Shown in pieces: positions 27,212 to 61,384 of a stretch of 64,000 bases of DNA (position 1 is its first letter; every line of letters starts with the position of its first letter). The notes under the pieces are model-generated. The model searched no databases, was not told the origin of the DNA, and worked only from the letters and a program-made list of their open reading frames with translations. The DNA is from Cetorhinus maximus (Eukaryota). The stretch is taken from positions 133,300,001 through 133,364,000 of the forward strand of contig NC_135881.1 in the NCBI RefSeq assembly GCF_964194155.1, read 5' to 3'. Both the position numbers and the translations under genes were made by a program.

Positions 27212-27456
27212 CTAGCTGTTACTTTTCAGTTTAGTAAGAACTTTCTTTTCTTTGACTCGTCTGTTTTGAAACCAAATAGTGACTTGTCTCTCAGAAAGGT
27301 TAGTTGATGCCGATATCCTCCTTCGTTTGTCCTTGGTGATGAATTTATTGGTGGCATATTCCCGCTCAAGTTCTTTCAACTGAACTTTGGTGTAAGGCAC
27401 TCTTTTCTTTCTCCCACGCCGAAAAGAGCTCGCATCGGAAGGATGCGAAACGACGT
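27212..27456 (-). CDS. HOXA13: Homeobox protein Hox-A13, exon 2 (homeodomain)
   Basis: Acceptor cttcacAG|AC at 27456. Reads [81 protein letters not shown]. Confidence 0.97.
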
Positions 27457-27886
27457 CTGTGAAGAGGAAACACACCTTATTATCCAAGGCATTTAGCACT
27501 CGCCACCGAATAAAAACTGGAAAAACGGGAACTGACGCCGGAGTCAAGTTGAAGATTGCGCCTTGGGGATGTTATACCGACTGTGATTTTTTTTTTGCAA
27601 TACATTTTTTACAGCAGAAAACATCATTTTGAAAGCGCGTGAGAAATTGAGGGGTAATTCTGAAAAATCGTGCAAAATAATATTTAGGCAGTGCACTAAA
27701 CATGAAAGTTTATGATAACATATTAGTACCGGTATTGGGGAATTACGCATATAATTTCTTAATTATAATCTCTGCTACACATTACCCCAGTTACCCGTAT
27801 GTATTTACACACCAGAATGCTTTGTTCCCTTCATTGTGCTAGTTCCTCGTGATAATTGAAAGACTCCTGTGTTTATCTATACTTAC

Positions 27887-28535
27887 CTGGCAGGCTTGAT
27901 TTCCAGAGGTGAGTAGCTTGGGGTTGTTCTTTCGAACAGCAGACTTGCCCGTTCCACCCATTGGTAATTGCCCAGGGCTGATAGCTCTCCATGGGTAATA
28001 ATGTCTCATGTCTCGGTTCCCCCGGAGCGCTGATGGTGGGAACCACAGGTACGTCCAAATAGCTGGGCATCGGTTGGTATGGCCCTGCGTAACCTTGGTA
28101 GAAAGCGAACTCCTTAGCTCTGGAGGTGAATTCCTCGCCGGCGGACGTGTCCATATATTTGTCGGCAGGATAGCCGGACAAGGTGGAGGGCTGAGCACAG
28201 GACTTGATGCTGCTATGGTGGCTCATTCGGCAGGGATAGTAACTGCTCCCAAAGTATCCATAAGGAAGGGCAGCACTGGACGAAGTTTGAGCAGCAGGAC
28301 AAGGACTACACTGTTTGACAGGTTCAGCAATGCCAGAGGCTGGCACTTCACTCGACGAGTAGGCAGAGCTGGGGGCTAGGGATGCTGGATGAGCCATCAA
28401 ATTCCTGCATTGATTCGCTGTGAAGTTCCCTCCTGAAAATCCATCCATGTTTTTATTAATTTCATCCAAGCTATTGTCGTAGACGAACATCACCGTGTCG
28501 ATCCAGCGGGGATGAAGTATCACGGACGCTGTCAT
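27887..28535 (-). CDS. HOXA13: Homeobox protein Hox-A13, exon 1
   Basis: [21 protein letters not shown]...[10 protein letters not shown]...VKQCSPC...[15 protein letters not shown]...[16 protein letters not shown]...HLWKSSLP. Donor CCAG|GTAAGT at 27887; 649 nt, phase 1; spliced protein 297 aa. Confidence 0.97.
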
Positions 28536-32587: not shown

Positions 32588-34989
32588 CTAATGTAAGTAT
32601 TTACGAGACCCAAGAAGCTTGTGTATTTAAATCCCCCAAATTCTTTATTATGAATAAAGATTTCCATATTATTCCAGTAAAATGTCTCCGAATATGTATT
32701 CAATCGTGATTCATTGGAGCAATAGAATTTTTTTAATTGTTCAACATAAATTTGTCATTAAATAATATAAAAATAATATATTAACCATATTACTGTTAAA
32801 ACCTGAACCCTTCCTACATTAAGCTTTCGTCCAAGGGCACCATAGAATGAAATATCCTCTGTTTCTTTTACTGTGGGCGTTACATAATAGGTTTAGACTA
32901 TAGCGTGGATTCCATTTATCATACCAAAGAACTAAACTGCCTTACGTGTATTTGTTATTGTTACATCAGAACATTTCTAGAACTCTTTGTGGCAATGTTT
33001 TCTGTTTTATGTTGCATTTGTTTTCAGATTTGATAATTAGTTTTGCATGATTTCCAGCTAAATATACCTGAAGATGAAATAACATGCACACACAGGTGCT
33101 CTGGGAAATGTATTTAAATATATCATTTTATCATGCATTTTATATTTTCGTTATTTGTTCCCTTCATTTGCCAGTTAACAGTTACAGATAATATGTAATA
33201 ATTTAACGACTAATTTAAATAAATAATTTAATGGGTGTCGTTTTGATTTCTTATTTTCTACCACATGGGCCATATGGTAAATCCCACCACTTATACTCCA
33301 ATATCAGCTGTCCTCCACCCACTGCTGCTACCAGTGTCTCAAACTTTAGATTCTACAGGTTAAACTGTAAAGCAACATCTTAAATAAAACCAACAAAGAA
33401 GCTATTTATCCTTGTGTTGCTCTACTGCAGATGTATTTCTTAGGTTAGAATTATTTCTATGGCCAAATTAATCGCAATAAAGTATCGTGTTATTGCAATG
33501 ATCATTTTCCTCAAACAATTAAATTGCAACATGCTTACCATGAGTTTTGCTAGTTGTATTTGAAATAATTATACCGTTATTAGATTAACACGGGCACCTC
33601 CACAAGCTAACATACCCTGCCAAGCATTCCATATTACTTCCCTGAAATATTTCGAAATTCTATCCGGAAGCCCGACTGAGAGCTATCAAAATGATCAATC
33701 AGCCTCGCTTTGCATGAGCTGCTAAATCTACAATATCATAAAATACATATCTACAAATATATTTACACTACAGCTCGGATATGGTTTTCTTTTATCTCTT
33801 AATTCTGGCACAGTTCGAATACATTCAGTCATCATTCTGAACGCTGCCTCCTGCCCCGTACCATTGAGCAACTGCGTAAGACAGACTCTGTAGGTGTATC
33901 ATTTATCCTTGGAGAACAACTTGTTACTTATAAGAATTGGGTTTGGCATAGCTGGCCATACCAATATTCCTAACGTATTTATATCACTTCAATTATCAAA
34001 CCGTTTCAGAACACAGCGATATTACAAATGTTTCGCATATTTATTGTGCTGGCTTCTTTGGTCAATGGCACACATTCACAGACAATATATTAAAAAGTGA
34101 ACAAACTTCGATTTTCATATTTCCTGATGTCAGTCCATCATTCGAATAAAATGCTGTATATTCTTACCAACAAATATATGTAAAGAACAAGATAGGCACT
34201 TGAATTATAGTAAGTGACAGCATTGAATTGTTGGTACGCATCTGACTAGGTTCTTCATATTGGTTTGAGCAGTTTACGCTTTCCATTCTATCACCTTTAT
34301 TATGCACAGTAGGTGTGTATACTCATTATGCTATTATTGCAAAGTAAAATTGTATGCCAGTTAAAAAAGTCAAGTGCATTGCAACAATTGTTCATGGAAC
34401 TGTTGCAATATACTTATCACCAACAGTCTAAAAAGATTATCAGATCATTAGCGAGACCTTTGTAAAAGATTGGAAAAATCAATCACTTTTTATCGAAACT
34501 ATTCTAACATATTCAAACAAACGTCAACTGAAACTATAGTTCAGACTATAAGAAAACTTGAATTATACAAGATGAACTTAGAGTCTTGCTAATTGACGAC
34601 TGAATTCAAAATTCGCCTCTCATTTAAAATGTTTAGAACCAATCGATATCATTACAGATAACATTGTTTTGCTTCAAAAAATATTACGTAGTTCTGGCTT
34701 CAAACCGAATTACATGGTCACTTCCGCGTTTTTGGCACCATTTGCAAACATTTACCAAAGGTATTTACATATAAAGATTTGTAATTGTAAAGGTCGGGTC
34801 TTAGCGCTGCATCCCACAACTAAATCATTAATTTCAGTTTGCTGGCGACGGATGAGCCTTTATTGTTCTTGATACTGATCTTGTAGCCAGATCTTTTGCC
34901 CATCAAGAGAAAATGTTACCGGCGTGGACGCCCGTTACATAACTGAGCCCGCCTGGAACATTTTTGACTTTGAACCTCCTAGCCCTTAC

Positions 34990-35179
34990 CTGTTGTTCTG
35001 CTAGCCCCAGTTTTGCAACAGTTATTTTTGCTGCTGTATTTCAAGAGTCAGTAAGCAGGTTTCCTCGAAAGCTCTCGAAAGAGTTGTGCAGTCTGGGGTT
35101 TGCTATGATGGATTCTTTTCTTCCCCTGTGTGTACTGAGCTGTGTGGGTGGGCAGACCAGGGTGAATGAGCTCTCGGGG
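34990..35179 (-). pseudogene. HOXA14: HoxA14 pseudogene, exon 2 (first 44 codons of a split homeobox, two frameshifts)
   Basis: Acceptor tttacAG at 35181-35180. Reads PRELIHPGLPTHTAQYTQGKKRIHHSKPQTAQL / SRAFEETCLLTLEIQQ / KITVAKLGLAEQQ then GTAAGG. This resembles the Hox14 homeodomain as recalled (RKKRxPYSKQQIxELExAFEENRFLTPEIRLNISxKLGLTERQ), with the diagnostic intron after Q44. Same strand as, and upstream of, HoxA13. Confidence 0.85.
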
Positions 35180-36045
35180 CTGTAAACTAATAATATCGCA
35201 TTATTCGATTCAACTATTTTCATTATTATGTTTATTATTTATTATAAACGGCCGTACAATATACGAAGAAAACGTTCATTGTTTTAACTGAATATATATA
35301 TATATATCCATAGTGATGTTCCTATAGTATAAAAGCCTCTAGGCGTTATGTATGCACAATGAATGCAAATAAAATTTTCCAGTACACATATGAATGCGCA
35401 GATGTCAGCTTTGTGGTAACTTGAATTTACGATCTCAAACCACGAACATTCCGTAAACAACTGCCACCTAAAACCCTATATATGGTTTTAAATTCATGCG
35501 AGACAAGTGTCTCTTCAACCCTATTGCAATAAGCGTACGCAAATAGATACAATCAAATTATACGAATTATATATGCGTTCCCTTCTAAGCGACGGACACC
35601 AACGTTCATGGTTTGTGTATAAAGTATCATTAGACATGAAGATATGTGAATCAATACCAACCAGAAAACAAGAAAAACGATATTGTTGCTCTGCGATATA
35701 ACTGGTGCCCACACTATATGAAAACAACCTTTCTCACATTTAATAAGTAAAATGTCAAAACTAAACACCAAGGTTAGTTTACTGTGACACATTATACATG
35801 TTAGTAATTGCGGGACGGTGAATTTAATTTCACAGTCTTTAACAAGAGATATCATTTATTTGTTTTCCTTTAACGACGCAACGTTTGCATTGGCATTATT
35901 ATTATTTTCTGCTACATTTTGTAACTCTGTTACATATCCCTGCTATGTGCCAAATAATAAGTAATATGTTTAATATTAGATGACTATATACTTAACAAAG
36001 ATTGCTTTCTGTGGGTCTTGTTTACACAGTATGATGACAAGCTGG

Positions 36046-36261
36046 ATGTGAGAACTCCAATTCAAGGTGTCTTGATGCTATTTATTGTTTAGTGTTTTGA
36101 ATTTTCAACCATAATATTTGATTCCTTGTAGTTGCTATATATATATAAATATATATATAAACCTATATATAGCAACTACAAGGAATCAAATATTATGGAT
36201 GAAAATTCAAAACACTAAACAATAAATAGCATCAAGACACCTTGAATTGGAGTTCTTACAT
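36046..36261. repeat. Near-perfect 98-bp inverted repeat with a 20-nt TA-rich loop
   Basis: Arm 36046-36143 is the reverse complement of 36164-36261 with two mismatches. Confidence 0.95.
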
Positions 36262-37429
36262 ATATATATATGCGAAAACAATTAACTAAAAGGTATTATG
36301 ATAAATACAGGTGCACAGGTTTCCTCAACATTTTTCTATTTTGTATCGTTGAATGTACTTAAATTAAACTATACATTCCACCTTAATAAATCATTAATCC
36401 TTGGGGCAAGAACATATTGTGTATGTTCAATGAATGGGCGCTCATATTACTTAAGGTGCACTTCAACACTCAACTGCAAAATATATTTATACTCGAATAT
36501 TAATCCTTTCAAATCAATTCATCGGGTGCTTAAGAACAATTTACATTATGACACGGGATATTTAAACAAACTATCTTCTCAGCGACTGGTTTCGGTTTTC
36601 TGTATAAACATATCGAAACAAACATCTGCACATTTTCGTTCACAACTGCCTCTGAAAGTCTTCAATGACTTTTATACGTTTTAGTGATAGAGGTAGCATA
36701 AAAGATGATCGCTTTATTTTCTCTTTTTCAAACCTGTAGGTAAAATGTTGCCCGCACAGTAACAAACATCTCGTCACCCACCCAGTGAACTGTTTAAAAA
36801 TTATGTCATACATTAAGTCGTAAAATGATAATCTGTTAATATTGTTTTGGGCACTTGAGTGGGGGATAGTATCAACATAAAGTTTTACTATCGCTTTTAG
36901 ACTGAAACGTTTCTTTTTGTCAATTTATGATGTCTAAATGCAACACTCTGTCAACATTATACCACACACGATCTTAATCGTGAGCTGGGCTCTCGGTTGC
37001 TTCACGGAGGTAGATTGAAACTGCAATATTCAGCAGATATTTGAAATGAAGTGCTCCACGCCGAAAATTAACTTAATATATCCGCGAGATAACTTGCATC
37101 AGGCAATGCAGGACATAAAAATAATCAATGTATATGCAAAGGAGAAATAAGGCGGTGAGAAGGCGCAAAATTATTGTATCGTTTTTCTTCTGGTCACTTC
37201 ATGGATGTGGAATTATTTTCGGAATCATTTAGTAATAATAAACTGGCCTGTATATATTTCTGCAAAATTTCACATCAGCTGTTTTATTTTGTCATTTTAG
37301 TTCATTATCTCTTTATCGAGTCTTTCTAAGTCAATCTTAGCATAATAATGTTATGACTGCAACTGTTATAAATTGATCAGAAATTAACCCCAGTCATAGT
37401 AACTCGTTCTGTTAGCAACCCCCCAACAG

Positions 37430-38010
37430 ACCTAAGGAACGAGGGTTATTAATTACTCCTTCTCTCCAAGTGAAGAGTGAGTAATGGTAACGGGTTATCC
37501 TCAGGTCTGGTTCATTAGTATCAGTCTTAGTTTGACCAGTGAGATTAGAGGGCCGTGGGAACCTATAGCTTCCTGATAAGCACGGATGACCCCTGCATGT
37601 TCAGCCCAGGCTCGGGTCGGGAAAAGAGCTTTCGGAAATAACTGCAACTCACAACCACTTAGATACTGCGAGTAGCAGGGACTCCACTGTAGAAAACTGA
37701 TCATAACCGAAGGGAATCCGTGCTAAACTTGAAACGCACATGGGAAAGGATAATATCCAGCACTCTGTGCAGAAGGAGCAAAAGTAATGTGCCTATAGTT
37801 CACATTACCAAGCGAGATCATTTCTATATTTACCCTTGTAATGGCACAGCTTTCCCACTAGATGTCTGCAGAGTTGCTTGAAGCTGTTCAAGAATCTTTC
37901 CTGAATTTTAAGTTTTGTCTCCAAAGTTTGCAGTCACTATACTTGGTATACTGCGTTTGGATGTGTCTAGGTAAACAGCCTCTATGTACAGAACGCCATC
38001 TTTTACCATG
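37430..38010 (-). pseudogene. Possible degraded exon 1 of the HoxA14 pseudogene
   Basis: GC-richer block upstream of exon 2 with broken frames encoding SAGYYPFPC, RIPFGYDQF and SPCYSQYLS, similar in style to posterior Hox N-termini (HoxA13 [13 protein letters not shown]). Boundaries approximate. Confidence 0.35.
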
Positions 38011-41000: not shown

Positions 41001-41562
41001 TATTAATATTATCTTTTAAGTCTCCCTTTCAGGATTATTTCAAGGGGAATTCAATGCTCCAGGGCCATTTGTAATTCAATACGGAGGATATAAAAATAGA
41101 AGCATTTGTTATGGTCACATTTATTTTTATAATTCCTGTGTTTACGCGCTATGCGCTTTTATTGTAGCGCAGAACGTGCAAATTGATATATGAATAATAT
41201 ATAAACAACCATGTAGAATGTAATTGACGATATATTGTCATATCTTTTTTCAACTGTTGGGAACTGATCTTTGGTAACAGATATACACAGTGCAATTTGG
41301 AATCTCAAAAAGACACCAAACATGTTTTAATCGCGCCCGTTTCACTGTTTATCTGTCAGCAGCTGTTACAACAGGGAACTAATTAAGCGTGTACAATTAG
41401 TATCGACCCAGAGGGAAGACAGCTAATACCAAACCAATCTTATACGTTAGATACTGAAAGGCTATCAGGGGACTGGAAAACTGGTTCGCAGCCAATCCCA
41501 TAAGCAGCTATTGTAAAAGGACTAGATAAGGGGTACTCAGCCAATCTCAAACATGGAGATTG

Positions 41563-47589: not shown

Positions 47590-50500
47590 GGGCAGAATTT
47601 TTCGCTGAGTTGGCGGGCACGCACCCGACCCACTCAAGCGTAAAATAGCGCGTGATGACGCCAAGTGAGCATCCCGACATCATCGCATACTTGCGCGATA
47701 TTTTGGTCGGCGGGCACAAGCAGGAGTCGGAACTGTGCCCGCCATTAAGATGGCTAGTTCAGGCCATTAAAAAGGCAACTGATGCCAATTTTACATTGCC
47801 TGTGCGATTTTGCACTCATCGCATGGGCAAAGCGGGCAGGCGGCAAGCTCTCAATTTACAAAACCTCATCTACGGGTGGGATAATAAGGGTCAGCAGCAT
47901 TGACAGCTTGAGTAGTGAGGAGTTTGGTAGATAGTTTGCAGCTGGTTACTTATTGGTACTTGGCACTTCATCTCTGTTTGGGGCTTCATTCTTAGCATTT
48001 CCAGGCTTCATTTCTGGACTTATTGGTGTCTCCAAGGACCCCGGAGGATTCAGACCATGTGGACTTTTCCAGCTATCAGGCAGCCTTCTGTAACCCTGGT
48101 AATGGGGATTGTGGTCTCCGCTGGATGCACCTCCTCCGAGGAGGAAGAGAGGGGCAGAAGGGAGAGGAGGCCAGGTGTCCCAATGCAGCTTCCAGAGGAG
48201 TGACCTGGGGGAGGAGAGGCACAGGCACAAAGGGCGCAGGGCCAGCAGGAAGTCCAAGGCATCAGAGGCCGCAGAAGTCGCCACTACCCTGCTGCCAGGG
48301 TTTACAGGCGGCGATGCAGCTACCTCAATTTGTCCGAGGTGCAACGCCGAAGTAGGCTCCATGTCTCATTTGTCAGACGATTGGGCCTGAGATCACCTCC
48401 AACTGTGCCTCCACAAGGACAGTGATAGAGAGAACCATAGGTCTTCTGATGATTCACTTCTGATGCGTGGACCGTTCAGGGGGAATGCTACAAAACTCCC
48501 CAGAGCAGGGGTCACCGACCGTGGTCACATGCAGTGCTCAGCACAGTCTGGCACTGGCAAGGGGGGCCCCACTGGAGGAGGGAGATCTTGGCACGGCTGC
48601 ACAGGCCACAGATCATGAATCCGGTTGTGAGTCTGCAGAAGGGCACAGCGAGGAGAATGCTGAGGGCGTGGAGGCAGACCTCAGTAACCTCCAGGGAGGC
48701 AGGGACACCACGGATGCCTTGATCTAATGCTCCTTCGGCTGGGCTGCCAAATATATGCTACCATCTCATGCCAGGGCTGCCGCCTCCATCCCAGGTGTCT
48801 GAAATTACTCTTTCATTTGAACCCAAAGTCCACTCAGTGCCTGTGCAATAAACTTTAGAGCCACCCAAGTCCAGCATTACATACTGGCGTACCCTGCACC
48901 ACATTAAATAAAAAAGGTGAAGCACACTCAGGCCATTATGGCAGAAGAAAATTTATCTCATTTTGACATCCCAAACAAATTAACAAAAACCTCTCTGGTC
49001 TTCAACCCCAGATCAGTAAACATAAACAAAACATTGCACAACAGAAGATTGCCCATGACGAGTCTCTCTTGTGCTCACGGTGCCTTAAACTTATGTTTGC
49101 GAGTGTTGCGTCTTGATGCTCCCCACTCGTTGGCAGCGGCATTGGAGGCAGCCGGCTGACTCTGCTGTCCTGTTGGCCTTGATGACCTTGGCAGTCACCT
49201 TCTGGCCAGTGGAGCCTGTGCTGGCACCTCCTGGGAGGGAACAGCCAGTGCTATGACTGGCATCTCCCCAATCACCACAGCACCATCAGATGCCATGGCC
49301 ACTGGCAGAAGGGCGGAGGAGCTGCTGCCCTCATTCAGAGCACCCTGAGAGGAGACCACAGAGACAACAGGCAGCTCGTGCGCCAACGTGAGGTCGCTCT
49401 GGACCTCCCTGCTCACTGTTGATGGACAGGCACCTAGCTGGGATACTGAGTGCCTCATCCATCTCCCACACTGGCACTGACCACCTGAAGTCATTGCCTG
49501 TGTGAGGGGTTGCAGGTCTAAGCGCATCCCAGGAACCCCTGATTCTGTACCTGGAGCTGCCTCTCCATGAGAGTTACCACTCTCTCAATGGAGGAGGCAA
49601 TGCGCTCGGCAATGAGGGTCAATGCAGTGCTCACGCTCTGCATGGACTCCTCCGTAACGGAGACTATGGCATGCCTACCCTCACGGATCTCTGCCAGATC
49701 CTCCTGCACATCTTGCTGGACATCCAGCATCTGTCGCCTAATGGGTGGCTCCAGAGGCTCAACATCTGCCTTCGGCTCAGCATCGTCCTGGTCTCCAGCA
49801 GTCCTCTGACTGCTGGCGCCCTGGGCACTCTCTGCCTCTGCCTGCACCTCAAGTGCGTGTGAAGTGCCCTCACCGCTGCACACCAACATTCTAGCCAAAG
49901 ACCTAATGTCCACGGAGGTGCTGATATCTGCGCTGGTGCCTGGTTCAGAGAGCGGGTATGACGCTTGTGCATCTGGAGCCTGGCAATCCTCTGGCATCAG
50001 GGGTGGCTCTTTGGGGTCATACAATTGAGTGCATGCTGGCAAATCTAAAGGAGAACAATGACAAGTCATTAGTTTAAGTCATCACACTGTCAATGCGCAT
50101 GCCAGGCCCCCTGGTGAGACACTGGAGATCTGCATTGTCTTTTAATGATCAATGGGGAATCCAGTTTTGAGGCTCCCATCAATAAAGAGATTACACAAGA
50201 ATGTTTGCACCATCCAAAACTCTCACCTCTGTGCACTGCAGTCTTACCTTCACCTGACACCTCAGCCTCTCCGCGGCCAGTTGACCAAGCTGCGTGCTGC
50301 TTCTCCATCTCCAAGGCAGCCTGCTCTTACCTTGTGAGGAACTGGGAGATTTTGGGGGCCTCTGCATGTCCGGGACCTCTCAATATTGTTATGGGATGTC
50401 TTCTGCTGAAAGGACAGAGGAGCATTGATTAGTTCACTCTCATTGCAGCCTGGCCAACCCCACCTGAGGAGCACCTTGCAGGGCATATCCAAGTCGTGGT

Positions 50501-51202
50501 CCTAGAGCTGCAAGGCTCACCCCTTTGGCCAGGTCCGGCAGTTGACACTCAGGCTCTAACACCCCTGAGCTCCACGGGGGGTGGGGAGATGGCCAGATGT
50601 TAACACTGTAACACATTGACGCATGCCAACACAGTACCCACCCTTCCTGTAGTAGGTCATTAAACTTCTTGCGGTACTGCACCCAGGTGCACCACACCAC
50701 ATCATGGCTGCTGAGCAGTACTGCCACCTCCTCCCAAGCTCTTTCTGTTAGGTGCGGTGGCCTCCCCTTTCCATCCCTGAGGACAGGGATGTCCCTCCTG
50801 GCAGCCACCTTCTCCAGCAGGACCGCGAGGCACTCATCAGAAAACTGGGGTGGCTGAGTGCCCACCTGACCTGCCCTCCCGCCTGGCACCTGCAGCCACA
50901 CTGGAAGCCATAATTTCCTGTTGACAACACCAAAGATGTCTTCTCCACTGGCAGCCTTCCAGGAGCTTCCTGGGCCATTTTTAAACCGGCTACTGGGTCA
51001 CCATTGGACCCGGTGGCCAACAGGCCCCCGCCCCTGCTCGGCCCTTCCCAACCGGTGAGGAGCCACATTTCATGCTGGGTGGGCCTTAATTAGCCCGCCA
51101 GCATGAAATTGCGGTTGTGGACCGATCGTGGGTAGTGGCCCATTTCCCGGCCACTCCAGGGCCCGCCGACTGCACCTGCCCACCAAACTGCAAATTCTGC
51201 CT
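47590..51202 (+). mobile_element. PIF/Harbinger DNA transposon, internally deleted and degenerate
   Basis: TIRs GGGCAGAATTT / AAATTCTGCCT, TSD CAG/CAG. Plus-strand transposase remnants YPAARVYRRRCSYLNLSEVQ (~48285) and ASTRTVIERTIGLLMIHF*CVDRSGG...VVTCSAQHSLALARG (~48407-48565). Convergent minus-strand Myb/SANT-like gene. Confidence 0.9.
50640..50901 (-). pseudogene. Harbinger Myb/SANT-like DNA-binding protein, first exon remnant
   Basis: PQFSDECLAVLLEKVAARRDI...AWEEVAVLLSSHDVVWCTWVQYRKKFNDLL is typical of the trihelix/MSANT partner protein of Harbinger transposases. Further remnants at ~50260-50380 and ~49200-50050. Confidence 0.75.
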
Positions 51203-52043: not shown

Positions 52044-55000
52044 TTTTTCTTATTCATTCACGGGCTTCACTGGCTAGGCCAGCATTTATTGCCCATCCCT
52101 AGTTGCCCTTGAGAAGGTGATGGTGAGCTGCTTTCATGAACCGCTGCAGTCCATATGGTGTAGGTGCATCCACAGTGCTGCTAGGAAGGGAGTTGCAGGA
52201 TTTTGACTCAGCGACAGTGAAGGAACGGCGATATATTTCCAATTCAGATTGGTGAGTGGCTTGGAGGGAAAATTCCAGGTGGTGGTGTTCCCATCTATCT
52301 GCTGCCCTTGTCCTTCTAGATGGCAGTGGTTGCGGGTTTGGAAGGTGCTGTCTGAGGAGCCTTGGTGAATTCCTGCAGCGCATCTTGTAGATGGTACACA
52401 CTGCTGCCACTGTGCGTCCTTAGTTGAGGGAGTAAATGTTTGTGGATGTGGTGCCAATCAAGCGGGCTGCTTTGTCCTGGATGGTGTCAAGCTTCTTGAG
52501 TGTTGTGGGAGCTGCACTCATCCAGGCAAGTGGGGAGTATTCCATCACACTCCTCACTTGTGCCTTGTAGATGGTGGACAGGCTTTGGGGAGTCAGGAGG
52601 TGAGTTACTCATTGCACGATTCCTAGCCTCTGACCTGCTCTTGTAGCCACAGTATTTATATGGCTAGCCCAGTTCAGTTTCTGGTCAATGGTAACCCCCA
52701 GGATGTTGATAGTGGGGGATTCAGTGATGGTAATGCCATTGAACATCAAGGGGGGATGGTTAGATTCACTCTTGTTGGAGATGGTCATTGCCTGACACTT
52801 GTGTGGCGCGAGTGTTATTTGCCACTTGTAAGCTCAAGCCTGCATATTGCCCAGATCTTGTTGCATTTGGACATGGACTGCTTCAGTATCTGAGGAGTTG
52901 CAAATGGTGCTGAACATTGTGCAATCATCAGCAAACATCCCCACTTCTGACCTTATGATGGAAAGAAGGTCATTGATGAAGCAGCTAAAGATGGTTGGGT
53001 CGAGGACACTACCCTGAGGAACTCCTGCTGAGATGTACTGGATGTGAGATGACTGACCTCCAACAATCACAACCATCTTCCTTTGTGCTAGGTATGACAC
53101 CAACCAGCGGAGAGTTTTCCCCTTGACCCCATTGCCTCCAGTTTTGCTAGGGCTCCTTGATGCCACACTCGGTCAAATGCTGCATTGATGTCAAGGGCAG
53201 TCACTCTCACCTCACCTTGGGTGTCCAGCTCTTTTGTCCATGTTTGGACCAAGGCTGTAATGAGGTCAGGATCTGAGTGGCCCTGGTGGAACCCAAACTG
53301 GGCATCAGTGAGCAGGTTATTGTTAAGCAAGTGCCGCTTGATAGCACTGTTGATGATCCCTTCCATTACTTAACTGATGGTCAATAGTGGACTAACGGGG
53401 CGGTAAATGGTCGGGTTGGATTTGTCCTGCTTTTTATGAACAGGACATACCTGGGCAATTTTCCATATTTCCAGATAAATACCAGTGTTGTAGCTGTACT
53501 GGAACAGCTTGGCTAGGGGCGTATCAAGTTCTGGAGCACAAGTCTTCAGTACTATTGCTGGAATATTGTCAGGGCCCACAGCCTTTGCAGCATCCAGTAC
53601 CTTCAACTGCTTCCTGATATCACGTGGAGTGAATCGACTTAGCTGAAGACTGGCATCTGTGATGCTGGGGACATCCGGAGGAGGCCGAGATGGGTCATCC
53701 ACTCGGCACTTTAGCTGAAGATTTTAGTTATCTTTTGCACTGATGTGCTGGGCTCCTCCATCGTTGAGGATGGAGATATTTATGGAACCCCCCTCTCCAG
53801 TGGGTTGTTTAATTGTCCACAACCATTCACGAATGGATGTGGCAGGACTGCAGAGCTTAGATCTGATCTGTTGGTTCTGGGATCGCTTAGCTCTGTTTAT
53901 CACTTGCTACTAATGCTGTTAGGCTCGCAATTAGTCCTGTGTTATAGCTTCACCAGGTTGACACCTCATTTTTAGTTATGCCTGGTACTGCTCCTGACAT
54001 GCCCTCCTGCGCTTTTCATTGAACCAGGGCTGATCCCCTACTTGATGGTAGTGGTAGAGTGGGGGATATGCCAGGCCATGAGGTTACAGATTGTGTTCAA
54101 GTACAATTCTGCTGCTGCTGATGGCCCACAGCATCTCATGAATGCCCAGTCTTGAGTTACTAGATCTGTTCAAAATCAATCCCATTTAGCATGGTGGTAG
54201 TGCCACACAACACGATGGTGGGTATCCTCGAAGTGAAGGTGGGACTTCATCTCCACAATGACTGTGCGGTGGTTACTCCTTTCAATATGGTCATGGACAG
54301 ATGCATCTGCGGCAGGCAGGTTGGTGAGGATGAGGTCAAGCATGTTTTTCCCTCTTGTTTGTTCCCTCACCACCTGCTGCAGACCCAGTCTAGCAGTTAT
54401 GTCCTTTAGGACTTGGCCAGTTCGGTCAGTATTGGTGCTACCAAGCTACCCTTGGTGATAGACATTGAAGTCCCCCGCCAAGAGTACACTCTGCACCCTT
54501 GCCACCCTCAGTGCTTCCTCCAAGTGGTGTTCAACATGGAGGAGCACTGATTCATCAGCTGAGTGGGGGGATAGGTGGGGGGCGGTACTTAGTAATCAGC
54601 AGGAGGTTTCCTTGCCCATGTTTGGGCTGATGCCATGAGACTTCATGGGGTCCAAAGTGGATGTTGAGGACTCCCAGGGCAACTTCCTCAAAAATGTATA
54701 CCACCTGTGGTATACTGTGCCGCCACTTCTGCTGGGTCTGTCCTGCCAGTGGGACAGGACATACCCAGGGATGGTGCTGTTGGTGTTTGGGACATTATCT
54801 GTAAGATATGATTCCATGAGAATGACCATGTCAGGCTGTTGCTTGACTAGCCTGTGAGACAGTTCTCCCAATTTTGGCATTAGCCCCCAGATATTAGTAA
54901 GGAGGACTTTGCAGGGTCGACAGGGCTGCGATTTCCGTTGTCATTTCCAATGCCTAGCTCGATGCTGGTGGTCCATCGGGCTTTGTTTCTTTTTTGTGAC

Positions 55001-55306
55001 TTTGTAGCCATCTAATACAACTAAGTGGCTTGCTAGGCCATTTCAGAGGGCAGTTAAGAGTCAACCACATTGCTGTGGGTCTGGAGTCACATGCAGGCCT
55101 GACTAGGTAAGGACGACAGATTTCCTTCCCTAAAGGACATTAGTGAACCAGATGGGTTTTTACAACAATCGACAATGGTTTCATGGTCATCATTAATTCC
55201 AGGTTTTTATTGAATTCAAATTCTACCATCTGCCTTGGCAGGATTCAAACCTGGGTCCCCAGAACACATACTAGTCCAGTGACAATACCACTATGCCATT
55301 GCCTCC
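52044..55306 (-). mobile_element. Apparently full-length CR1-group non-LTR retrotransposon (single degenerate APE-RT ORF, tRNA-like 5' head)
   Basis: Endonuclease fragments KLGELSHRLVKQQPDMVILMES and LDLILTN...SNHRTV. RT fragments KAVGPDNIP, QFGF, ALDINAAFDRVWHQG, GVPQGSVL, MFADDC. Tail ends in (TGAA)n plus an A run. Confidence 0.9.
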
Positions 55307-58889: not shown

Positions 58890-59735
58890 GACGGACTAGT
58901 CAAACCCATCAGTGCCACAGTGGAACATAATATGATTAGTCCTCATGATAGCTGCCATGGAAGCTCAGATTGTGGCCACCTTAGCTTTGGGGGATAGTGT
59001 TGAAAGGGGCTTCCAGGATACCACTCCTGTTCTCCAGTAATACCCCAAGAGTGCTGAGGTGCCATTCCAAGAGAATGGCCTTGCTTCCGATGTAGAGGCT
59101 CATGAAGATCTTTCTCAGAACAAATGCATGTCTACTTCCCCATCAGGCACTCCACCAATGACCTTGAATTGCAGGTAGCCAGCCAGCCCAGACACCTGCA
59201 AATCACACCAAGGCGCTGCATTCTTCAGCTGGTCTCCTCTAGGTCCAAAGCTGCTCGAGATGGCCTCCAAGACCACTTGGTGTCCTCAATAGAAGCTTAA
59301 CAGCCTTCCATCTACTAAACTGCAGCCACAGGGAAGGCATCATATTGGAGCACTAGCATAAGGAAAAAGCTTGCTAATCAGACATTAAAGGTGTCCAAAA
59401 GAGTAATTGGCTATTTTTTTTGCCAAATTCTGACACGATTTGTTTGATAAATTTGTATTTTGATTGAGATTTGATGGTGGCTTTTGACGTTGCTGTGAAG
59501 TAAAGGAAAGCAATCAGATGCTGGTTATAAAGATTGTGACACTGTCGTATAAAGAAGAATGGGAGTGTGAATTTAGTTTAAACATGCCTCAATGAGCTTG
59601 CCAGGTAGAGCATGTGGTGGGCTCTTGTTGTAACTGCCCCTCCCCCACTTCTCTTCCCTCTCCTTCTCCTCCTCCCTCTTCCTATTCATATTCCTCTACT
59701 TGTTGCTGCACAGTTGGTCATAGAGGTTGGCCCCC

Positions 59736-61296
59736 TTTTTTTTATTCATTCATGGGATGTGAGTGTCGCTGGCTGGACCAGCATTTATTATTCATCCATA
59801 ATTGCCCTTGAGAAGATGGTGGTGAGCTGCCTTCTTGAACTGCTGCAGTCCAAGTGGTGTAGGAACACCCAAAGTGCTGTTAGGGAGGGAGTTCCAGGAT
59901 TTTAACCCAGCGACAGTGAAGGATCAGCAATATGTTTCCAAGTCAGGATGGTCAATGGCTTAGAGGGGAACTTCCAGGTGGTAGTGTTCCCATGTATTTA
60001 CTGCCCTTGTTCTTCTAGATGGTAGTGATCGTGGGTTTGGAAGATGCTGTCTAAGCAGGCTTGGTGAGTTCCTGCAGCGCATCTTGGAGCTGGTATGCAC
60101 TGCTCCCACTATGCGCCGGTGGTGGAGGGAGTGAATGCTTGTGGAAAGCATGCCAATCAAGTGGGCTGCTTTGTCCTGGATAGTGTTGAGCTTCTTGAGT
60201 GTTGTTGGAGCTGCGCTCATCGAAGTAAGCAGGGAGTATTCCATCACACTCCTGACTTGTGCCTTGTAGATAGTGGACAGGCTTTGGGCAGTCAGGCAGT
60301 GAGCTACTCGCTGCAGGATTCCGAGCCTCTAACCTGCTTTCGTAGTCACAGTATTTATATGGCTTGTCCAGTTCAATTTCTGGTCAATGGTAGTCCCCAG
60401 GATGTTGATTGTGGGGAAATTCAGTGATGATAATGCCATTGAATGTCAAGGGGCGATAGTTAAGTTCTTTCTAGTTGAAGGTCATTGCCTAGCACTTGTG
60501 TGGTGCAAATGCTACTTGCCATTTGCCAGCCCAAGCCTGGATATTGGCCAGGTCTTGCTGCATTTGGACATAGACTGCTTCAGTGTCTGAGGAATTGCAA
60601 ATGGTGCTGAACATTGTGCAATCATCAGCGAACATCCTCACTTCTGACCTTATAATGGAAGGAAGGTCATTGACGAAGCAGTTGAAGATGGTTGGGCCGA
60701 GGACACTACCCTGAGGAACTCCTGCACTGATGTCCTGGAATTGAGATGATGGACCACCAAGAACCACAACTGTCTTCCTTTGTGCTAGGTATGATTGCAA
60801 TCAACAGAGAGTTTCCCCCTAATTCACATTTACCCCAGTTTTGCTCAGACTCCTTGATGCCACACTCGGTATAATCCTGCCTTGATGTCAACAGCAGCCA
60901 CTTGCACCTCGCCTCTGGAGTTCAGCTCTTTTGTCCTTTTTTATTTATTCATGGAATGTGGGCGTCGCGGGCTAGGCCAGCATTTATTGCCCATCCATAA
61001 TTGCCCTTGAGAAGGTGGTGGTGAGCTGCCTCCTTGAACCATTGCAGCTCATGTTTGAACCAAGGCTAAAATGAGGCCAGGAACTGAGTGGTCCTGGCTG
61101 AACCCAAACTGACCATCAGTGAGCAGGTTAATGATGACCCCTTCCTTTACGTTACTGGTGATGGAGCGTAGACTGATGGGACAGTGATTGGTCGGGTTGG
61201 ATTTGTCCTGCTTTTTGTGTACAGGACATACCTGGGCAAACATATTGCCGGGTAGATGCCAGTGTTGTAGCTGTACTGTAGCAGCTTGCCTAGGGG
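59736..61296 (-). mobile_element. Second, 5'-truncated copy of the CR1-group LINE
   Basis: Collinear with ~52044-53520: GVPQGSVLGPTIFNCFVNDLPSIIRSEVRMFADDC and the same 3' tail. Confidence 0.9.
60937..61049 (-). mobile_element. ~113-bp 3' tail of the same LINE family nested inside the second copy
   Basis: Interrupts ttttgtcc|atgtttg, which is continuous in the first copy at ~53232-53246, and repeats the tail gctaggccagcatttattgcccatcc. Confidence 0.85.
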
Positions 61297-61384
61297 TCAC
61301 AAAGTAACTTTCAACTGATAGAGAAACCAGGCTGGGGATGGGGAATATGAAAGAAAAAAAAGAAAGGCATGCATTTATAAAGTG

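Follow-up and report, generated by a model that had tools for sequence, protein, structure and literature searches.

Probable remains of a three-exon HoxA14 gene upstream of HoxA13 in the shark Cetorhinus maximus

The window analysed here, a stretch of 64,000 nucleotides, covers the 5' end of the shark HoxA cluster, which is encoded on the minus strand. The intact HoxA13 gene, whose exon 1 shows 95% identity to HoxA13 of Mobula, is followed by two more posterior Hox genes that we read as HoxA11 and HoxA10 from their order and sequence. Evx1 is found on the opposite strand at C3:133,456,121, about 92 kb past the window. Upstream of HoxA13 lie the remains of a split-homeobox gene, here termed psi-HoxA14. 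An inverted orientation of HoxA13 exon 2 was considered and rejected, as this exon sits on the minus strand. The features of the locus are listed below.

27212..28535, minus strand: HoxA13, intact (exon 1 28535-27887, exon 2 27456-27212), the 3' neighbour of psi-HoxA14 and 6.3 kb from its exon 3
about 34842..34898, minus strand: exon 3 remnant of psi-HoxA14, with helix 3 reading WLQDQY and an in-frame TAA at 34862-34860
34899..34989, minus strand: former intron 2, about 91 nt long where HoxD14 has 166 nt
34990..35179, minus strand: exon 2 remnant, 16 residues plus homeodomain residues 1-44, with three frameshifts and one extra codon
35180..37431, minus strand: former intron 1, 2252 nt, GT and AG both kept, containing the inverted repeat
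36046..36261, no strand assigned: inverted repeat in former intron 1, two 108-bp arms with 6 mismatches
37432..37821, minus strand: exon 1 remnant, scores 98 and 90 against HoxA14, phase-1 donor kept
37833..37886, minus strand: HoxD14-like N-terminal trace upstream of the ATG, in a frame different from that of exon 1

The original prediction was confined to the stretch 34990..35179 on the minus strand, where it described three peptide pieces in three frames between an intact AG acceptor and a GTAAG donor placed after homeodomain residue 44. The pieces and both splice sites are present as described. The AG occupies 35181-35180 and GTAAG starts at 34989, delimiting an exon (35179-34990) of 190 nt, and the donor follows homeodomain residue 44 (ERQ/VKIW, the slash marking the junction). 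The CAG/GTAAG junction is common to this exon and to the intact HoxD14 gene of the same genome. Frameshifts are located at about 35150 (35147-35153, near the 5' end), 35085 and 35030; together with one extra codon they account for the 8 nt by which the exon exceeds its HoxD14 counterpart of 182 nt.

Alignments were computed with a frameshift-aware aligner written for the analysis (BLOSUM62, frameshift penalty 12), which was needed because a profile HMM search of six frames gave a single weak match, in exon 3 (E 0.097). Pfam contained no family matching the three single-frame pieces, and no Rfam match was found in the 64-kb window. In the frameshift-aware alignment to Hox14 proteins that the original prediction had proposed as a check, exon 2 scored 103 with coelacanth HoxA14 and 95 with lungfish HoxA14, as against 67-77 with 14 HoxD14 proteins and the genome's own HoxD14 and at most 48 with 30 other homeodomains of the genome (the 30 fetched among 45 matches). 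The homeodomains of HoxA13, HoxA11 and HoxA10, which lack an intron at residue 44, score at most 43 on psi-HoxA14. The observed exon 2 score was reached by none of 2000 dinucleotide shuffles for each of three queries, among them a HoxD14 query scoring 77; the shuffle maxima were 44-48, the lowest of them for coelacanth HoxA14.

The predicted extent thus corresponds to a real exon, but to the middle one of three: exons 1 and 3 had been missed. Both were found by scanning 28.7-47 kb with the same aligner. In exon 1, an ATG at 37821 aligns with Met1 in the HoxA14 records from coelacanth and lungfish, and the phase-1 donor TTAG/GTCTGT at 37432 has TTAG/GTCAGT as its HoxD14 counterpart. The scores with the two HoxA14 proteins exceed all of 1000 shuffles each (maxima 59 and 44), whereas 13 of the 14 HoxD14 proteins score 29-49. 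The remaining one, from Narcine (P0015), scores 70; it was considered as an intact chondrichthyan HoxA14 and rejected, since it aligns as HoxD14. The exon 1 frame is interrupted after 32 codons by a TAG at codon 33 (37725-37723) and further by a -1 frameshift near 37580, and about seven codons are lost near the 3' end. A HMMER search with the 73-aa open frame of this exon gave three matches of 3-7 stretches each, and the two examined were repetitive. Upstream of the ATG, the trace at 37833..37886 scores 30-45 with the first 30 residues of six HoxD14 proteins (equalled by 0-13 of 1000 shuffles). This could mean that HoxA14 originally had some 30 more residues, or that its records from coelacanth and lungfish are short.

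Exon 3 encodes WLQDQY in helix 3 instead of WFQNQR, so that position 52 still has the group-14 Q and F49, N51 and R53 are lost; the in-frame stop comes five codons on, counted from the closing part of WLQDQY. Its scores with Hox14 proteins are 39-52, compared with at most 39 for other homeodomains; each of the 13 proteins tested has its top site here within 18 kb, and none of 2000 local shuffles reached the score for the four proteins shuffled. In an ungapped comparison with HoxD14 DNA, 31 of 54 bases match. Intron 2 keeps its donor GTAAG and has lost its acceptor AG, ending in ...TTGATGGG as against ...TTTTTCAG in HoxD14. The AG nearest to the lost acceptor (34894-34893) is out of register; a cryptic AG is present 97 nt past the second donor, with a pyrimidine fraction of 0.56.

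Each of the three exons is the top match within the real 12.3-kb region, and in 100 shuffles of that region no exon's score was reached for either HoxA14. The three matches have the correct order, strand and splice phases, the phases being those of the genome's own HoxD14. Exons 1 and 3 are each interrupted by a stop, the frame is shifted in exons 1 and 2, and the exon 3 acceptor is lost. There is no open frame across the three exons, and neither of the two marks of a functional Hox14 gene, an open frame and WFQNQR, is retained.

The inverted repeat of former intron 1 has 2 mismatches in 95 positions of its outer arms and a folding z of -26.6, and no other copy was found in the genome. It is likely a young local inverted duplication, with an assembly artefact as a possible alternative. 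A skate-only stem-loop upstream of Hoxa13 is described in the available text of PMC2746220.

The gene order HoxA13, psi-HoxA14, Evx1 parallels the order HoxD13, HoxD14, Evx2. The genome yielded a single intact Hox14 exon 2, in the HoxD14 gene between HoxD13 and Evx2 (contig C11), which encodes a protein with 98% identity to a white shark record. No trace of HoxB14 was found in the 30 kb upstream of HoxB13 (best exon 2 score 41), and none of HoxC14 in the 20 kb upstream of HoxC13, where the best exon 2 score (42) is the edge of HoxC13 itself; for both, deeper decay or a greater distance is possible. The 66 kb past position 38000 hold no second Hox14 trace. Posterior homeoboxes also occur on four short unplaced contigs (C370, C3314, C4306 and C2726) that likely belong to the HoxC cluster, and the Hox13 gene of these contigs has simple repeats upstream.

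psi-HoxA14 is located about 4 kb inside the Hox domain, which is CpG-rich and contains hardly any interspersed repeats. Up to 42 kb, all 21 of the 2-kb bins have an observed/expected CpG ratio of 0.67-0.96; the 11 bins farther out have 0.12-0.34, and interspersed-repeat matches (against ten other loci) start almost all after 42.9 kb. The domain edge lies near 41500, where the ratio falls from about 0.85 to at most 0.35 within 500 bp and repeats start soon after. The distance from HoxA13 (28535) to Evx1 (133,456,121) is about 128 kb, repeat-rich beyond 42 kb; HoxD13 and Evx2 are about 18 kb apart. Outside the domain, the region 48000-51100 holds a GC-rich element whose Myb/SANT-like match is weak (E 0.0007, below the cut-off). 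It has a second copy in locus L040, and we take it to be a likely decayed Harbinger-type transposon. The regions 52050-55300 and 59700-61300 are multi-copy and contain reverse-transcriptase-like and endonuclease-like frames; presumably these fragments are LINEs.

Summed over three exons, the scores are 248 and 236 for the two HoxA14 proteins and 145-196 for the 14 HoxD14 proteins, a comparison without guide bias because every protein is aligned in the way that suits it best. Position, exon 1 and the summed scores indicate that the remnant at 34842-37821 is almost certainly a HoxA14 pseudogene. Exons 1 and 3, together with the location between HoxA13 and Evx1, back the original assignment of the locus as psi-HoxA14 upstream of HoxA13. 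The placement of psi-HoxA14 in trees follows the guide used for its read-through. With coelacanth HoxA14 as guide it groups with HoxA14 (100/99), and with HoxD14 as guide, for exons 2 and 3 alone, it groups with HoxD14 (94/99), on a long branch in both cases; in the latter tree a grouping with HoxA13 is not rejected (p-AU 0.28). Diagnostic columns read with HoxA14 guides are 10 vs 3 and 11 vs 3 in favour of the HoxA14 type, a count that leans to the guide, and with HoxD14 guides those of exons 2 and 3 are about even (2 HoxA14-type vs 1-2 HoxD14-type).

The HoxD14-guided tree and the even column counts are what could be expected if the remnant were a decayed copy of HoxD14. The exon 1 scores of HoxA14 against those of 13 of the 14 HoxD14 proteins point the other way, as do the HoxA14-guided columns with their lean to the guide. 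A copy of a neighbouring HoxA homeobox is at odds with the low scores of HoxA13, HoxA11 and HoxA10 and with their lack of the residue-44 intron, and any copy would have had to land at the exact HoxA14 position with its introns kept; we therefore regard an origin other than from the HoxA14 orthologue as very improbable. The joining of frames could also create a resemblance by chance, and Pfam is silent on the single-frame pieces. This explanation is refuted, to the point of being hardly conceivable, by a z of about 20 for exon 2 and by the correct order and phase of three exons that match independently.

A protein search with residues 1-150 of coelacanth HoxA14 returned two of 20 candidates, from coelacanth and lungfish, and none from cartilaginous fishes. 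This absence carries little weight because the search was insensitive, the caecilian HoxA14 being missed as well. Hox14 proteins P0002-P0016 are misnamed in NCBI (Hox-A4-like, hhex-like, Hox-B13a-like, Hox-D12-like, Hox-C8-like and others), and for this reason name searches miss the group.

The identification of psi-HoxA14 leaves the question of its present role. A set of 16 Hox14 proteins has 43 invariant columns. In 42 of these psi-HoxA14 retains 24 residues, and of the 75 bases fixed by the code it retains 56 (p = 0.747); this neutral-decay test uses the invariant Hox14 columns only. At this rate, chance alone would leave all four bases of the two exon 2 splice dinucleotides intact with P = 0.31, and three or more of the four splice dinucleotides, three being the number observed, with P = 0.40. 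Because formerly fixed coding bases survive equally, the surviving splice sites of exon 2 are no sign of RNA function. The original prediction had argued from intact splice sites amid decayed codons to ongoing splicing; the chance expectation and the lost exon 3 acceptor undermine this argument. The psi-HoxA14 sequence itself neither requires nor rules out splicing.

A transcript joining exon 1 to exon 2, with a cryptic or read-through end, could still be produced and act as a non-coding RNA in posterior HoxA regulation, like bowfin hoxd14. The retained GT and AG of intron 1, the GTAAG of intron 2, the cryptic AG past the second donor and the location within the CpG-rich domain are compatible with it, and in bowfin the hoxd14 pseudogene yields a spliced transcript, with expression in fin buds, vent and tailbud, according to the available text of PMC8423624. 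We nevertheless consider such a transcript unlikely. Splice-site survival equals the neutral-decay expectation, the exon 2 acceptor has a modest pyrimidine tract (0.56, vs 0.61-0.78 in three working acceptors), and the split-homeodomain junction is not usable in the bowfin manner: the shark locus keeps the donor and has lost the ancestral acceptor AG and the helix-3 motif, whereas bowfin keeps the junction and WFQNQR. Moreover, gar hoxd14 appears in the same partial source as a pseudogene without transcription evidence. Somewhat less probable still is that the old exons were kept as DNA and now serve as an enhancer or boundary for HoxA13. Their distance upstream of HoxA13 is 6-9 kb, within the CpG-rich domain; turtles and some crocodilians also retain conserved remains of HoxA14 exons (PMC11600591, in part), and a conserved element found 5' of HoxA14 in coelacanth occurs in skate and horn shark 5' of HoxA13 (PMC2746220, in part). 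Against this, about a quarter of the formerly fixed bases have changed and several indels have accumulated; no CTCF-like match occurs in the psi-HoxA14 locus or at the 41.5-kb edge (the two found elsewhere were equalled in 7 of 100 shuffles), and slow mutation alone may account for the persistence. The account we favour, with good though incomplete confidence, is that the three-exon HoxA14 remains stand at their ancestral place, broken, and that they likely undergo neutral decay, selected neither for a protein nor for an RNA function. That the locus is inert is likely, judging from its sequence.

A HoxA14 pseudogene of the horn shark was reportedly described by Powers and Amemiya in 2004. Three exons and WFQNQR define group 14, and Hox14 pseudogenes are noted in several cartilaginous fishes as probably independent losses (available parts of PMC3509897). 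The elephant shark (Callorhinchus milii) has kept HoxD14 along with A14 and B14 pseudogenes (PMC3707753, in part), which bears out the caution in the original prediction that the gene was probably not new. Both that A14 pseudogene and psi-HoxA14 are decayed group-14 genes of the HoxA cluster in species with an intact HoxD14 (PMC3707753 and PMC3509897, in part); the elephant shark differs by its B14 pseudogene, of which the searched interval upstream of HoxB13 held no trace here. HoxA14 in skate and horn shark is doubted in the available text of PMC2746220, whereas all three exons are traceable in the present genome. The available text of PMC1845163 does not mention HoxA14.

HoxA14 is present in lungfish and coelacanth (PMC3038165 and PMC7875771, in part). 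The coelacanth (P0016, 'Hox-D12-like' in NCBI) and lungfish (P0138, 'HoxA14 homolog') proteins are 62% identical in exon 1 and are the top scorers on exons 1 and 2 of psi-HoxA14, with which they share start, exon phases and split homeobox. In contrast to these intact genes, psi-HoxA14 has a decayed helix 3, no open frame and no last acceptor. Caecilians have HoxA14, and turtles and crocodilians have pseudo-exons (available parts of PMC11600591) that are, like the shark remains, long-lasting, frameshifted, interrupted by stops and located at the 5' end of HoxA; their loss differs in being an independent event in tetrapods. Bowfin hoxd14 resembles psi-HoxA14 in being a Hox14 pseudogene with stops and a retained split-homeodomain donor (PMC8423624, in part), but it belongs to the D cluster, not the A cluster, and is known to be spliced and expressed. 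Given the published chimaera, turtle, crocodilian and bowfin cases, as far as these sources go, neither a HoxA14 pseudogene nor a spliced Hox14 pseudogene is new. An exon-by-exon account of shark psi-HoxA14 was not found in the passages of the Hox14 literature searched; Powers and Amemiya 2004, Ravi 2009, Kuraku 2008 and Hara 2018 may contain one, and we make no priority claim.

The decay of psi-HoxA14 at formerly fixed sites amounts to 0.31 substitutions per site (Jukes-Cantor; 0.18-0.50), a value that best-fit alignment makes smaller than the real one. When paralogous homeoboxes of clusters A, B and D are compared, 153 of 250 fourfold sites differ (Jukes-Cantor 1.27; 0.99-1.70, both lineages); the pairs are not independent, and those with the four short-contig loci were left out. 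Setting 0.31 against the per-lineage synonymous distance of 1.27/2, we roughly place the death of HoxA14 midway between the cluster duplications and the present; the dead period could cover from about 0.2 to 1.0 of that time. The estimate leans towards a loss after the chimaera split and is also compatible with a single stem loss. It is unlikely that psi-HoxA14 both met its end inside the shark lineage, apart from the chimaera loss, and constitutes a second protein-less Hox14 locus yielding a spliced non-coding RNA (exons 1-2) that acts on HoxA13.

The history of the locus may be pictured as follows. After the vertebrate genome duplications, sharks would have kept HoxD14 and lost HoxA14, the latter being kept in lobe-finned fishes. 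Frameshifts, stop codons and the loss of a splice acceptor would have broken the shark gene, with neutral decay thereafter. CpG dinucleotides decay in methylated DNA, and the Hox domain is probably unmethylated in the germ line, which would result in fewer mutations. A slow neutral rate is reported for the elephant shark (PMC3964593, in part). psi-HoxA14 is likely still readable because of the slow mutation of cartilaginous fishes and its location in a CpG-rich, nearly repeat-free domain.

The significance of psi-HoxA14 is modest. Its surviving splice sites are shown not to indicate RNA function. If shark embryos do splice it, psi-HoxA14 would join bowfin hoxd14 among Hox14 loci that outlast their proteins as RNA. 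As a complete three-exon shark HoxA14 fossil with mapped lesions, it provides a basis for asking whether cartilaginous fishes lost this gene once or several times.
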